64,000 nucleotides of DNA from positions 15,243 through 79,242 of the IMG/VR virus record IMGVR_UViG_3300027808_002177; one strand, 5' to 3'. This DNA comes from a virus. Its lineage: Duplodnaviria; Heunggongvirae; Uroviricota; Caudoviricetes. The notes under the pieces were generated by a model. It saw nothing but the letters and a program-made list of their open reading frames with translations, was not told where the DNA came from and searched no databases. The translations under genes were made by a program, and so were the position numbers. Within the stretch, counting starts at the first letter, position 1; every line of letters begins with the position of its first letter. Shown piece after piece: positions 25,148-27,199 of this stretch.

Positions 25148-27199
25148 TTACTTACTTGTTGCTCTATATGTGCCGTCCCAATTAGCTGGCAAGCCTTCAC
25201 GCATACGTTCCAGCATATTTTCGTAATACTGCTTTAGTTCGTTATCTAAACCAATTAACTTTTCACATTGACGAATAGCACGAGTCCAATCGCCACGGTA
25301 GTATGCTTGCAAATATGTGTCATGCAGGGTAATATTGGTAGTGCCTAATGTAAAGATTCTTACTCCAACTGTTTTACCTTTAACTGCAATGCAATCTAAT
25401 TCTATCGTCGGGTATTGGTCCTGAACCAATTCAGCAGTTCGCTGTCCCAGTACAATTCTAACGCCATAAGGCTTACTTTGTCCCTCAAGGCGGGACGCAA
25501 GATTGACGCCATCGCCCAGACAAGTATAGTCAAAACGCTGATCAGATCCCATGTTACCGACCACAACAACTGCGCTATTAATCCCAAGACCCATACCAAA
25601 AGCTGGTATACCTTCTGCTGTAACTTCACGATTAAATTCATCTAAACTCTCCATCATTTCTAATGCTGTCTTAACAGCCATATGTGCGTGACGTGCTTCG
25701 TCAACTGGTGCGTTCCAAAATGCCATCTGTGCATCACCAATGTACTTGTCTAATGTGCCGTTATTGTCAATGATCTTGCGAGTCATTGCAGTCATGTAAC
25801 GATTCATAATCTTGGTAAGTCCTTGTACATCCCGACCATAGTGTTCTGAGATTGTAGTAAAGCCACGAACGTCAGTGAACATAATACTTAACTCGCGCTC
25901 GTCGCCACCTAGCTGTAACAGCTCTGGATTCTTCTGTAGTTTAGCAACCAGTGCAGGGCTTAGGTATGTACCAAACTGTTTCTTGATTTGTTGCTTTTGC
26001 TTGAACTCTTGTACGAAACGTGCAAATAGTGCATGCCCATACAGTACAATGGCTGCAAACGTTAAAGAGTAAATGTCCCATAGTTGACTATAGTTGCTCC
26101 ACGCAAAAAAGCTACCCCACACAACACTGCCAATGGTTGCAAATAGTGCTGTGCCCACTGCCCAAAAAGGCAATCTAGGCATCGCGAAAATTAGTAGAAA
26201 CGCTATAAGCACAATTGTTATCAATTCGATTGCATTGGCAAATGCAGGGCGTACAGGGCTATCACCGTCAAGCAATGTTTGTACAGTTTGTGCTTGAATA
26301 TCGTGTGCCCAGGCTTCACCACGCGGTGTAGCAATAATACCACCTAGGCCTTCTACTGACAAGCCTAACACTACCACTTTACCCTGCAGATTTACGTTTT
26401 TATTGGCCAATTCAGATAGTTCATAGCGTGTGAAGTTCTTGTTCCAACGCAACCAGATTCTGGCACGTTCGTCTGTGGTGATAACAGGTTGTCCAGCAAT
26501 ACGAACTTTTTCAATTCCTGCTGAACTCATTTTAACTTGATAACTTTGTTGTCCAGTAACAACACGAAGTGCTTCTAATGGCAAGCTGGGATAAATTTCT
26601 TCGCCTACGCCCACAATAAGTGGCATGCGTCGAACAACACCATCTACTTCAGGAGCAACAACAGTTGTACCTACTCCAGCGGCTGCATTAGCCAATGGCC
26701 GGTAAGGACTTAGTGCGCCAGGCCAAGAGTACACCCATTCTAACGGATTACCACCTATAACAGCAACACCACGACGAACTGCGTCAGGACGTTTGTTTTG
26801 CGTAGTAGGTGCTTGGGCAATAACACTGTTGGTGCGGCCAAGTACTTTAACTAGATCTCGATCGCTGCCAAAACGGTCTGCTTCACTCATAATAACAGGA
26901 ACAACAATTGCGGCAGCACCCAGTTCTTGTATTTGTTCAATTGCTCGAGCTAGGTCTCGCCGAGGCCACGGCCACTGTCCCTGGCGTTCTATACTGGCTT
27001 CGCCGATGTCGACTATAACAACACTATCAGAATCAACAGGAGTGTCAACTGACAGTAGTGCATCAAAGCCTTTGAGTTGAATGCTTTCAACAGGCACAGG
27101 GTTAGAGATTTTTAATGCCACAAGTATAACAGCCGTAACTGCTACCCAAGCAATACTCAATGGACCGGGAATAAAGTTTTTCATACTATAATTTAACAC
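25148..27199 (-). CDS. membrane-bound class III adenylate/guanylate cyclase with N-terminal CHASE2 extracytoplasmic sensor domain
   Basis: N-terminal TM helix, then a CHASE2-like periplasmic region, then TM helices. The C-terminal cyclase homology domain reads FTDVRGFTTISE ... KYIGDAQMAFW ... GVNLASRLEG. Confidence 0.85.
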   Translation of the reverse strand: MLNYSMKNFIPGPLSIAWVAVTAVILVALKISNPVPVESIQLKGFDALLSVDTPVDSDSVVIVDIGEASIERQGQWPWPRRDLARAIEQIQELGAAAIVVPVIMSEADRFGSDRDLVKVLGRTNSVIAQAPTTQNKRPDAVRRGVAVIGGNPLEWVYSWPGALSPYRPLANAAAGVGTTVVAPEVDGVVRRMPLIVGVGEEIYPSLPLEALRVVTGQQSYQVKMSSAGIEKVRIAGQPVITTDERARIWLRWNKNFTRYELSELANKNVNLQGKVVVLGLSVEGLGGIIATPRGEAWAHDIQAQTVQTLLDGDSPVRPAFANAIELITIVLIAFLLIFAMPRLPFWAVGTALFATIGSVVWGSFFAWSNYSQLWDIYSLTFAAIVLYGHALFARFVQEFKQKQQIKKQFGTYLSPALVAKLQKNPELLQLGGDERELSIMFTDVRGFTTISEHYGRDVQGLTKIMNRYMTAMTRKIIDNNGTLDKYIGDAQMAFWNAPVDEARHAHMAVKTALEMMESLDEFNREVTAEGIPAFGMGLGINSAVVVVGNMGSDQRFDYTCLGDGVNLASRLEGQSKPYGVRIVLGQRTAELVQDQYPTIELDCIAVKGKTVGVRIFTLGTTNITLHDTYLQAYYRGDWTRAIRQCEKLIGLDNELKQYYENMLERMREGLPANWDGTYRATSK

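Follow-up and report, generated by a model that had tools for sequence, protein, structure and literature searches.

A CHASE2-sensor class III cyclase, predicted to make cAMP and probably the output end of a curli-FecR envelope module, in an uncultivated giant phage

Introduction

What use would a virus have for a membrane-bound sensor whose catalytic end makes a cyclic nucleotide, which nucleotide would that be, and what would there be for such a sensor to sense? These questions are raised by a single gene in a 64-kb stretch of DNA (the whole stretch analysed, hereafter the window), in which a sequence-only reading had recognised a phage-encoded nucleotidyl cyclase and supposed that it might rewire the second-messenger signalling of the host, with consequences for catabolite control, biofilm and defence. 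The cyclase belongs to a published and very widespread phage gene family, already annotated in Pelagibacter phage HTVC008M and Methylophilales phage Melnitz, and an “AC” within pelagiphage curli (T8SS) clusters was described in 2022 (PMC9599517), the basic picture in the literature being left unchanged by the cyclase of the window. What is new is the genome that hosts it (an uncultivated phage lineage of ~330 kb), the insertion that separates the cyclase from FecR, together with a predicted sigma-70-like promoter of its own, and the match between the FecR/CHASE2 pairing and a sensor pair that recurs in bacteria. As argued below, the product of the gene is probably a functional, signal-regulated adenylate cyclase (AC) of the inner membrane, acting as the output end of a phage envelope module.

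Results and Discussion

Architecture of the cyclase

The cyclase gene is real, intact and carried by an uncultivated giant phage, its parts being the following:

25148..27184 (-), coding sequence of the CHASE2-sensor class III cyclase, predicted to be an adenylate cyclase, 678 aa from the ATG at 27184
26192..27130 (-), CHASE2 periplasmic sensor region, residues 24-336 (683-aa numbering), Pfam PF05226, preceded by the first transmembrane segment (TM1)
26012..26239 (-), three-helix transmembrane bundle, residues ~321-396, from hydropathy and AlphaFold2 (AF2)
25370..25894 (-), class III cyclase homology domain, residues 436-610, Pfam PF00211, with alignments to 3r5g, 1wc0/1wc1, 2w01 and 6fht

The longest ORF (25148..27199(-), 683 aa) opens with a GTG at 27199 and holds all three of the motifs that had been quoted for it (FTDVRGFT at 441-448, KYIGDAQMAFW at 485-495 and GVNLASRLEG at 564-573); the true start is likely the ATG at 27184 (MKNFIPG..., 678 aa), because most database homologs are 678 aa long and the more distant relatives align from there. 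Its identification as a membrane CHASE2-sensor class III cyclase is borne out by both profile searches, each of which scored above the curated cutoff (CHASE2, PF05226: E=1.3e-43, 149.9 bits vs 26.3; Guanylate_cyc, PF00211: E=5.6e-19, 68.9 bits vs 21.9), and NCBIfam had no matching family. Hydropathy gives an arrangement of one plus three TM segments (TM1 at ~13-33, three TMs within ~321-396), in line with the N-terminal helix and TM bundle of the sequence-only reading, and the helices of the AF2 model (9-27, 316-337, 340-365 and 371-404 in the 678-aa numbering) agree, being modelled, like the CHASE2 region, with a pLDDT of 80-90. The TM bundle is followed by a linker (397-435) that is 80% conserved among 83 homologs and resembles a cyclase transducer element.

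A fold search with the AF2 model returned CyaB as the best fold match for the cyclase and no solved structural match for CHASE2. The catalytic domain is modelled poorly as a monomer (pLDDT 30-60), so its catalytic geometry rests on sequence alignment. This low confidence is what would speak for a dead scaffold or sensor protein, a reading which, taken together with that of a cellular origin of the window (see below), is extremely improbable: all of the catalytic residues are conserved, and the gene is under purifying selection (dN/dS ~0.085, with values of 0.08-0.09 at dS 0.7-1.4).

Catalytic residues and the predicted product

In alignments with CyaB, CyaC and Cya2, D443 and D489 take the places of the two metal-binding Asp, R555 that of the phosphate-binding Arg, and N566 and R570 those of the transition-state Asn and Arg. 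Among the 83 viral homologs, D443, D489 and R570 never vary, N566 is present in 82, and R555 is at least 97% conserved. The decision between adenylate and guanylyl cyclase, which the sequence-only reading had left to the specificity residues of this virus-borne enzyme, falls on the adenylate side: K485 (83/83) and T559 (81/83) match the adenine-specifying combination (Lys + Asp/Thr) and not the guanine type (Glu + Cys/Gly), CyaB (3r5g) and CyaC (1wc0), both of them adenylate cyclases, have the same two residues, and this Lys485/Thr559 pair is the reason why ATP as the substrate, hence cAMP as the product, is predicted. Pseudomonas aeruginosa CyaB and Spirulina CyaC (1wc0/1wc1), whose soluble catalytic domains are of the class IIIb type, share the whole Asp/Asp/Arg/Asn/Arg set with the phage protein as well, whereas the sensor modules differ (MASE2 in CyaB, other N-terminal domains in CyaC, CHASE2 in the phage cyclase). 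Class IIIb enzymes are bicarbonate-responsive.

Would some other product, namely cGMP or a pyrimidine cNMP (as made by PycC of Pycsar), which could trigger or decoy a cNMP-based host defence, fit the data better? The PycC models of PADLOC do match the protein, in its catalytic domain only, and the best of them (PDLC00734, E=8.5e-25) reaches 85.6 bits, more than the 68.9 bits of Pfam; moreover, the second-best match in the PDB is the guanylyl cyclase Cya2 (2w01). Such PycC cross-matches are, however, expected, because the models share a superfamily with PF00211, and none of the 47 cyclase chains matched in the PDB sequence search at E<=1e-3 is named as a PycC. The top match of that search, 6fht, is a chimera with a Lys-engineered AC variant of Cya2, and only 6fht and 2w01 score higher than CyaB (3r5g, E=2.6e-27) and CyaC (1wc0/1wc1, ~1e-24). 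Cya2 itself has Glu/Gly at the specificity columns, and a Glu->Lys exchange turns it into an AC (6fht), whereas the phage family holds the CyaB/CyaC pair invariant or nearly so. Nor is there an effector nearby: PADLOC gave no match for the five flanking ORFs (p686, p261, p254, p248 and FecR), and a cNMP_binding domain was seen in none of the window ORFs of 120 aa or more. Guanylyl cyclase and pyrimidine cyclase/Pycsar were rejected because of the specificity residues and this missing effector, and a product other than cAMP is highly improbable. No CRP-like cAMP receptor or phosphodiesterase was found among the ORFs of the 64-kb window, the genome being of ~330 kb.

Viral origin, distribution and relatives

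The cyclase matches phrog_35576 from end to end (E=2.5e-227), and genes for relatives of it were found on no fewer than 593 IMG/VR contigs. The carrier lineage (~285-332 kb, 42% GC, uncultivated) has, in contrast to HTVC008M and Melnitz, a backbone to which no deposited phage is related. It could be argued that the window is cellular instead (a bacterial island or a mis-binned contig), the part of the extremely improbable reading above that concerns its origin, since no capsid or terminase match was seen among the scanned window ORFs, metabolic genes are many, and a nucleotide search of the deposited phages with the gene and 25 kb of the window gave no match. Yet the window has tail-fibre and endolysin genes (PHROG matches) and a nearly single-strand gene layout, the relatives sit on IMG/VR contigs (140-332 kb) as well as on a 332-kb NCBI contig, a close homolog on a related 332-kb contig carries the name “uncultured Caudovirales phage”, and a search of 185,579 cellular species turned up no relative above ~37-39% identity. 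On the cellular side, it is Alphaproteobacteria such as Bradyrhizobium and Mesorhizobium that come closest to the viral clade.

As for the better-known relatives, the cyclases of HTVC008M (AGE60353) and Melnitz (QZI94833) have the same architecture, and 87-97% of the protein aligns with them at 40-41% identity. Sinorhizobium meliloti CyaD1/CyaD2/CyaK and other alphaproteobacterial CHASE2 ACs likewise have CHASE2, 3TM and a class III cyclase in common with the viral enzyme, but they are only ~31-39% identical to it, and those of the S. meliloti type answer a plant signal in symbiosis, not infection. A CyaD1 construct without CHASE2 makes cAMP constitutively (PMC5498481), which suggests that CHASE2 gates the cyclase. 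The gene is dispensable, because two related loci (L171 and L177) lost the cyclase but kept its flanks; another two metagenome loci (L174 and L180) were discarded as relatives, their similarity being due to chance 20-mer matches in GC-rich bacterial coding sequence.

The curli-FecR cassette

By gene order, the cyclase comes last in a phage cassette of curli (CsgF/CsgG/curlin) and FecR genes, the other members of which occupy 30688..35050 of the window:

34565..35050 (-), CsgF curli assembly factor (Pfam E=1.7e-05; synteny; signal peptide)
33742..34575 (-), CsgG outer-membrane curli secretion channel (Pfam CsgG E=3.1e-48; lipoprotein, lipobox LVSGC)
32893..33735 (-), curlin-like repeat protein p280 (repeats IEQIGNSNN/IEQVGNANN; signal peptide)
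31781..32887 (-), secreted FecR-domain protein (Pfam FecR E=8.3e-11; phrog_37870 E=5.7e-68; signal peptide)
30688..31632 (-), curlin-repeat protein, candidate second fibre subunit (Pfam Curlin_rpt E=5.3e-07; signal peptide; synteny with Melnitz gp103)

The Pfam score of CsgF (25.4 bits) is marginally under the cutoff of 25.8, the gene being syntenic with and homologous to phage CsgF genes, and p280, a homolog of which is present in 51 of 82 loci, probably starts at Met34, followed by the signal peptide. Export signals fall exactly on the envelope components of the cassette. The sequence-only reading makes no mention of this gene context.

Elsewhere, the arrangement is tighter. Among the 47 viral loci with at least 4.5 kb of upstream flank (40-90% identity, several phage types), FecR and CsgG are on the cyclase strand in 46, with the cyclase closing the cassette; FecR directly adjoins the cyclase in most viral loci, and a median of 269 nt (<600 nt in 39 of 58 loci) separates the end of FecR from the start of the cyclase. 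In HTVC008M and Melnitz, too, the cyclase comes last in a CsgF-CsgG-curlin-FecR-(curlin) cassette. A histidine kinase is reported to precede CsgF in podovirus cassettes (PMC9599517); none was found upstream in the window, the two ORFs there (35114..36637 and 36621..37436) being without a Pfam or PHROG match.

FecR and CHASE2 also meet outside of phages. In 14 of 80 cellular loci a homolog of the viral FecR lies within 8 kb of a cellular CHASE2 cyclase, and as only these 14 show a detectable FecR neighbour, the pairing is to be called frequent, not obligatory; CsgG or CsgF was found near cellular CHASE2 cyclases in none of the 80. Clusters of a CHASE2-AC with FecR, TPR and PDE genes are described in Campylobacterota (PMC9239204), and a biofilm operon of Burkholderia (RR/LysM-FecR/CHASE2-kinase) combines a LysM-FecR protein with a CHASE2 kinase (PMC5192318). 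As in the phage, a secreted or periplasmic FecR gene is there found beside a CHASE2 sensor, whereas the phage version sits in a curli cassette and no TPR protein, phosphodiesterase, response regulator or LysM was found with it. It is on these grounds that the FecR-domain protein is proposed to be the periplasmic partner of the CHASE2 domain. Of the three processes that the sequence-only reading had named (catabolite control, biofilm and defence), the curli/biofilm link is the one that synteny supports.

Downstream genes and the case for a stand-alone cyclase

Behind the cyclase there is a tightly packed block (23344..25143(-)):

24436..25143 (-), p254, 2OG/Fe(II)-oxygenase-like, with its ATG 4 nt after the cyclase stop
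23729..24475 (-), p248, 2OG/Fe(II)-oxygenase-like paralog
23344..23727 (-), gamma-glutamyl cyclotransferase-like gene

That p254 and p248 are tandem paralogs had been seen correctly (37% identity, E=9e-52). A 2OG/Fe(II)-oxygenase-like fold is suggested for them: their HxD...H...RxT signature is invariant (H112, D114, H209, R218 and T220 in 24 homologs), and in the fold search with an AF2 model of pLDDT 87 the top 50 PDB matches are all 2OG oxygenases, if weak ones (E~1e-3, TM 0.3-0.45). Pfam found nothing in either protein.

Such neighbours are cytoplasmic, and the cyclase is packed tightly with them and not with envelope genes, as would be expected if it were a stand-alone host-takeover gene whose cAMP reprograms catabolite control, motility or receptor expression, with curli and FecR merely sharing an ancestral hypervariable island. 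The 4.5 kb of unrelated cargo between the cyclase and FecR, the promoter-like site and operator-like repeats that the gene has to itself (described below), and the podovirus cassettes, from which the AC is often missing (PMC9599517), point the same way. However, the FecR-(curlin)-cyclase order on one strand in 46 of the 47 loci is hard to explain without joint selection, and bacterial FecR genes adjoin CHASE2 proteins even where there are no curli genes nearby, so that a stand-alone role seems unlikely.

The insertion and the non-coding region upstream of the cyclase

The separation of 4.5 kb in the window has left gene order and strand as they are elsewhere; between the curlin gene and the cyclase lie 3.5 kb, made up of two ORFs and a 670-nt non-coding region. 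The features of this interval are:

27871..30737 (-), insertion peculiar to the lineage, made up of p686 and p261 and lying between the curlin gene and the cyclase
28677..30737 (-), p686, a homolog of which carries Amidoligase_2
27871..28656 (-), p261, of no family
27429..27791 (-), conserved non-coding element, candidate ~360-nt structured RNA of no Rfam family
27291..27352 (-), a pair of identical CCGCAAAAWTATGG repeats with a spacing of 48 nt, upstream of the cyclase promoter
27190..27218 (-), predicted sigma-70-like promoter TTGACT-N17-TAAATT (TG-extended), with its end 5 nt ahead of the ATG at 27184

Neither p686 nor p261 has a signal peptide, and L010-L014 and all loci of the pelagimyophage type lack the insertion. 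With respect to HTVC008M and Melnitz, the window thus differs in having the insertion (the amidoligase-like gene, p261 and the non-coding element), a promoter directly before the cyclase and the oxygenase-like paralogs after it. In the giant-phage lineage the coupling to curli has been loosened, with 4.5 kb to FecR and the promoter of its own.

The long ORF-free region that had been noticed upstream of the cyclase is genuine (27200..27870): it has all three stops in all six frames and no codon periodicity, and hidden coding (recoded stops, a frameshift or a small ORF) was rejected on the stops in all frames and on periodicity (p=0.25, vs 479/188/110 in the cyclase CDS). Within it lies the strongly conserved non-coding element, for which a candidate structure of 91 pairs is 99.7% paired, with 11 compensatory pairs (vs 0-1 in slid-partner controls) and a GNRA loop retained despite sequence change. 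Single-sequence thermodynamic support is absent (z=-0.06), Rfam families were absent from the whole window at gathering thresholds, with a single noise match at E<=10 on the ORF-free region, and a covariance model of the element (R1) found no diverged copies in 1.37 Mb of locus sequence. A tmRNA, by analogy with Melnitz, was rejected: default ARAGORN reports none, and the permuted call, obtained solely with the threshold at 80%, extends into the p261 CDS, could not be reproduced in 5 homologous loci and arises in 3 of 40 shuffles.

Closer to the gene, the predicted promoter of the cyclase recurs as TTGAC(T/A)-N17-TAnAnT at the equivalent position in L008-L012 and L014. The perfect palindrome reported near the start codon is indeed there (TTGACTttcAGTCAA at 27204..27218), inside the promoter; its arms are only 6 bp long, about what chance would give in 670 nt once the loop length is free, and its right arm varies in relatives with no compensation, the left one being the conserved -35 box, so a regulatory hairpin was dismissed. 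The CCGCAAAAWTATGG repeat occurs just twice in the 64 kb, each time in the ORF-free region; the two copies are conserved in relatives and are a candidate operator pair. GGNCC-N3-12-TTGAC was also considered as a general promoter motif and set aside, its enrichment being only weak (9 observed vs 2.9 +/- 1.7 expected).

A possible mode of action

The reading that we regard as probable, that of a regulated adenylate cyclase at the output end of an envelope module, would work in the infected cell along the following lines. The CsgG lipoprotein pore and CsgF would form a channel for type VIII secretion across the outer membrane of the host, with the two signal-peptide curlin-repeat proteins as its likely cargo, and the secreted FecR-domain protein would reside in the periplasm. 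There, it might make up a sensor pair with the CHASE2 ectodomain, as apparently is the case in the bacterial clusters of CHASE2 kinases and cyclases, and the pair would turn a periplasmic or envelope cue (the state of curli secretion/assembly, or an external ligand) into a change in cytoplasmic cAMP. The class III catalytic domain is predicted to homodimerise, giving two symmetric ATP sites, and the cAMP would act via host cAMP receptors. In the giant-phage lineage, the insertion (4.5 kb) may have uncoupled the cyclase from the cassette, with the promoter and the two operator-like repeats upstream. A far more specific proposal can be phrased as well, in which the FecR protein and the CHASE2 ectodomain are a dedicated pair that sets cAMP by reading the phage curli machine or a ligand entering through an ungated CsgG pore, with the ~360-nt RNA and the operator pair controlling the cyclase; as a whole, this is doubtful and should be taken as speculation.

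Conclusions

The curli-FecR-cyclase cassette extends beyond the marine pelagiphages to uncultivated phages of ~330 kb, and a virus-encoded, envelope-sensing generator of cAMP, as the cyclase is predicted to be, is a widely used phage tool, judging by the viral contigs counted above. The CHASE2 sensor with its FecR partner recasts the published “iron regulator” reading of FecR as a sensor-pair hypothesis. To our knowledge, no ligand or signal of CHASE2 is known as yet, and the cassette, being small and portable, lends itself to the search for one. If the more specific proposal given above is true, a previously undescribed structured RNA of ~360 nt directly upstream would control the cyclase in the giant-phage lineage, and the cassette would be the first system to make a CHASE2 signal identifiable.

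Cyclase gene, catalytic residues and substrate

The ORF read from sequence alone as a membrane CHASE2-sensor class III nucleotidyl cyclase (25148..27199, minus strand, 683 aa from a GTG) was found exactly as placed, with the true start probably lying at the ATG at 27184 (MKNFIPG..., 678 aa), since 678 aa is the length of most database homologs and the alignments of more distant relatives begin there. Pfam places a CHASE2 match at residues 24-336 (683-aa numbering; E=1.3e-43; 149.9 bits, cutoff 26.3) and a class III cyclase domain at residues 436-610 (E=5.6e-19; 68.9 bits, cutoff 21.9), while hydropathy gives the expected N-terminal TM segment (~13-33) and a bundle of three more (~321-396), positions with which the helices of an AlphaFold2 model (ectodomain pLDDT 80-90) agree. 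The original observation is confirmed, and the identification as a CHASE2-sensor cyclase is supported.

The catalytic Asp pair and the transition-state Asn/Arg, on which that identification had been staked, are all present when the protein is aligned to solved cyclase structures: the metal Asp residues are D443 and D489, the phosphate Arg is R555, and the transition-state residues are N566 and R570. D443, K485, D489 and R570 are invariant in 83 viral homologs, T559 being kept in 81/83 and N566 in 82/83, and comparison with five relatives gives a dN/dS of 0.08-0.09 (dS 0.7-1.4). The choice between adenylate and guanylate cyclase resolves, on these aligned columns, in favour of a predicted adenylate cyclase, because the specificity pair K485/T559 is of the type seen in the adenylate cyclases CyaB (3r5g) and CyaC (1wc0) and not the Glu and Gly of the guanylate cyclase Cya2 (2w01); Cya2 engineered to an adenylate cyclase (6fht) likewise has Lys at its specificity column. 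Pycsar PycC models also match the catalytic domain (PADLOC, best E=8.5e-25), yet a PycC identity is unlikely and the match was treated as probable cross-talk within the superfamily, since no effector was found among five flanking ORFs and the specificity residues are of the purine/adenine type.

Viral origin and distribution

The evidence for a viral origin of the window is good, and the window is part of an uncultivated giant phage, as argued by its PHROG matches (tail-fibre, endolysin and others), the location of almost all genes on one strand, the end-to-end match of the cyclase to phrog_35576 (E=2.5e-227), its viral relatives on at least 593 IMG/VR contigs (the close ones on contigs of 285-332 kb, one titled [quoted passage not shown]), and the distance of the best cellular relatives, which are ~31-39% identical and mostly alphaproteobacterial in a search of one genome per species across 185,579 bacterial and archaeal species. 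Neither the cyclase gene nor 25 kb of the window has a nucleotide match among 50,697 deposited phages, and the sole match of a 1493-aa ORF is a 52-aa stretch in Vibrio phages.

The curli/FecR cassette

Full-length cyclase homologs of 40-41% identity were found by tblastn in Pelagibacter phage HTVC008M and Methylophilales phage Melnitz, where the gene closes a CsgF-CsgG-curlin-FecR-curlin cassette; the window has the same cassette upstream of the cyclase, on the same strand.

Features of the cassette and of the cyclase gene
34565..35050, minus: CsgF, signal peptide
33742..34575, minus: CsgG (E=3.1e-48), lipobox
32893..33735, minus: curlin-like repeat protein, signal peptide
31781..32887, minus: FecR-domain protein (E=8.3e-11), signal peptide
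30688..31632, minus: Curlin_rpt protein, signal peptide
25148..27199, minus: cyclase ORF

FecR and CsgG stand on the strand of the cyclase in 46/47 viral loci whose sequence reaches at least 4.5 kb upstream of it, and FecR usually abuts the cyclase (median gap 269 nt; <600 nt in 39/58 viral loci). In the subclade of the window, the second curlin gene is separated from the cyclase by an insertion of two cytoplasmic ORFs, p686 (28677..30737, minus) and p261, and 670 nt of non-coding sequence. No signal peptides were found in the inserted genes or in those downstream. The p686 homolog in L083, a related 332-kb contig (CACVEA010000001.1), carries an Amidoligase_2 domain. The cyclase gene is dispensable, as two related loci, L171 and L177, have lost it while keeping its flanks.

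In L083, the place of the second curlin gene is taken by an ORF of 640 aa (3841..5763, plus) encoding an F5/8 type C (discoidin) domain, which suggests that the secreted cargo/adhesin of the cassette is exchangeable. Some 13 kb from the cassette of the window, a 229-aa protein (47811..48500, minus) carries a GerE/LuxR-type HTH towards its C-terminus (residues 168-220, E=4.7e-16), preceded by ~165 N-terminal aa without a family match; it resembles CsgD, the curli master regulator reported missing from pelagiphage cassettes, in size and layout alone.

The ORF-free region upstream of the cyclase

The long ORF-free region pointed out earlier (27200..27870) is real: there are stops in every frame and substitutions show no codon periodicity, and hidden coding was rejected on both counts. 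Its nucleotide identity in 13 other contigs (81-96%) equals that of the cyclase catalytic core and exceeds that of most flanking coding sequence, with 25% of columns variable (11 sequences) versus 38% in the cyclase CDS, where 71% of third codon positions vary (6 sequences).

Features of the ORF-free region and a second promoter site
27429..27791, minus: candidate structured RNA (~360 nt)
27291..27304 and 27339..27352, minus: two exact copies of CCGCAAAAWTATGG, 48 nt apart
27236..27190 and 51037..50992, minus: GGNCC with promoter

It is fairly probable, judging from the alignment, that ~27791..27429 (minus) is a novel structured RNA. A consensus fold appears on the gene-sense strand alone (RNAalifold z=-2.8 versus +0.5 antisense) and comprises 91 pairs in 18 helices with 99.7% of cells paired, a structure both derived from and tested on the same narrow-clade alignment; compensatory double changes occur at 11 pairs versus 0-1 in every slid-partner control, and 0/500 shuffles reach the observed fold score. 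One hairpin keeps a GNRA tetraloop across four sequences (GCAA, GUAA, GUGA, GCGA), its closing pairs swapping CG and UA between genomes otherwise 94-95% identical. A single sequence of the element is no more stable than its shuffles, Rfam and ARAGORN returned nothing credible for the element, and a scan of 1.37 Mb of loci with a covariance model turned up no additional copy. The element, seen in 14 variants, does not depend on the cyclase, being retained in L171 and L177, where the cyclase gene is missing.

The CCGCAAAAWTATGG copies, which lie between this element and the promoter of the cyclase, are flanked by GTTAAC palindromes, conserved in relatives and without another match in the 64-kb window; they look like a candidate operator pair for a DNA-binding protein. 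The promoter itself, a sigma-70-like TTGACT-N17-TAAATT (27218->27190, minus), stops 5 nt ahead of the ATG at 27184, and more distant relatives have TTGAC(T/A)-N17-TAnAnT at the equivalent position despite diverged surroundings. The perfect palindrome earlier singled out near the start codon (27204..27218) did not survive as an element, being the -35 box plus a right arm that relatives do not conserve. Elsewhere in the window, a near-consensus sigma-70 promoter, TTGACA-N17-TATACT (51016..50992), is preceded at 3-12 nt by GGNCC; GGNCC-N3-12-TTGAC occurs 9 times versus 2.9 +/- 1.7 expected, with most copies on the coding strand, and is a possible promoter-class signature of this phage.

Downstream genes and other features of the window

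The label “2OG-oxygenase-like” given to the downstream paralogs p254 and p248 (37% identity) is reasonable. Theirs is a small, phage-restricted family in which no Pfam domain was found, with H112-x-D114...H209...R218-x-T220 invariant, and the top 50 PDB matches of an AF2 model (pLDDT 87), weak as they are, are all 2OG/Fe(II) oxygenases. Just downstream lies a gamma-glutamyl cyclotransferase-like gene (GGACT/AIG2; 23344..23727, minus), which may work with p686 as a set for ligating and modifying peptides or metabolites. Running opposite to nearly all genes are four small ORFs (93, 64, 77 and 110 aa; 22339..23354, plus), of which two begin with a hydrophobic N-terminus; L083 has a conserved homologous slot for them. 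Metabolic and modification genes are dense at 7345..16369 (minus) and elsewhere, the window encoding a UDP-glucose dehydrogenase fusion (783 aa), two radical-SAM proteins, and TauD, nitroreductase, mannose-6-phosphate isomerase, cytidylyltransferase, GNAT, UvdE, subtilase, papain-like protease and SPFH/Band_7 families.

The proposed FecR-CHASE2 pairing

The cyclase belongs to a known, abundant phage family whose curli/FecR association is already published: adenylate cyclase and FecR have been described as conserved and putatively regulatory in the pelagiphage T8SS region, in both myo- and podoviruses, and assigned an alphaproteobacterial origin, with the CHASE2 domain unnamed and FecR read as an iron regulator (PMC9599517, mSystems 2022). 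Two other papers on the phage curli operon (PMC7029224, PMC9004378) make no mention of cyclase, FecR or CHASE2, a literature search found no paper linking CHASE2 with a phage cyclase, and jumbo phages are not mentioned among the listed top matches from the curli/CsgG/jumbo-phage literature. What is new in the window is the giant-phage lineage as carrier and the rearranged gene context.

FecR-domain proteins recurrently adjoin CHASE2 sensors in bacteria: in Campylobacterota, CHASE2 cyclase clusters also encode FecR-domain and TPR proteins and a phosphodiesterase (PMC9239204), in a Burkholderia biofilm operon a CHASE2 kinase is coupled with a LysM-FecR protein (PMC5192318), and of 80 cellular CHASE2 cyclase loci, 14 have a viral-FecR homolog within 8 kb of the cyclase and none has CsgG or CsgF nearby. 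As S. meliloti CyaD1 produces cAMP constitutively when its CHASE2 is removed (PMC5498481), CHASE2 may, by analogy, be an inhibitory gate. The best-supported reading is that the phage would have taken up a FecR and CHASE2-cyclase sensor pair and coupled it to a curli secretion cassette, so that an envelope cue in the infected cell would be turned into cAMP; here the cAMP product, contact between FecR and CHASE2, the cue and the receptor acting downstream are inferences. No cNMP-binding protein was found among the ORFs of at least 120 aa in the 64-kb window. The points of lasting value are this reading of FecR and CHASE2 as a sensor pair and the neighbouring unclassified conserved RNA element.
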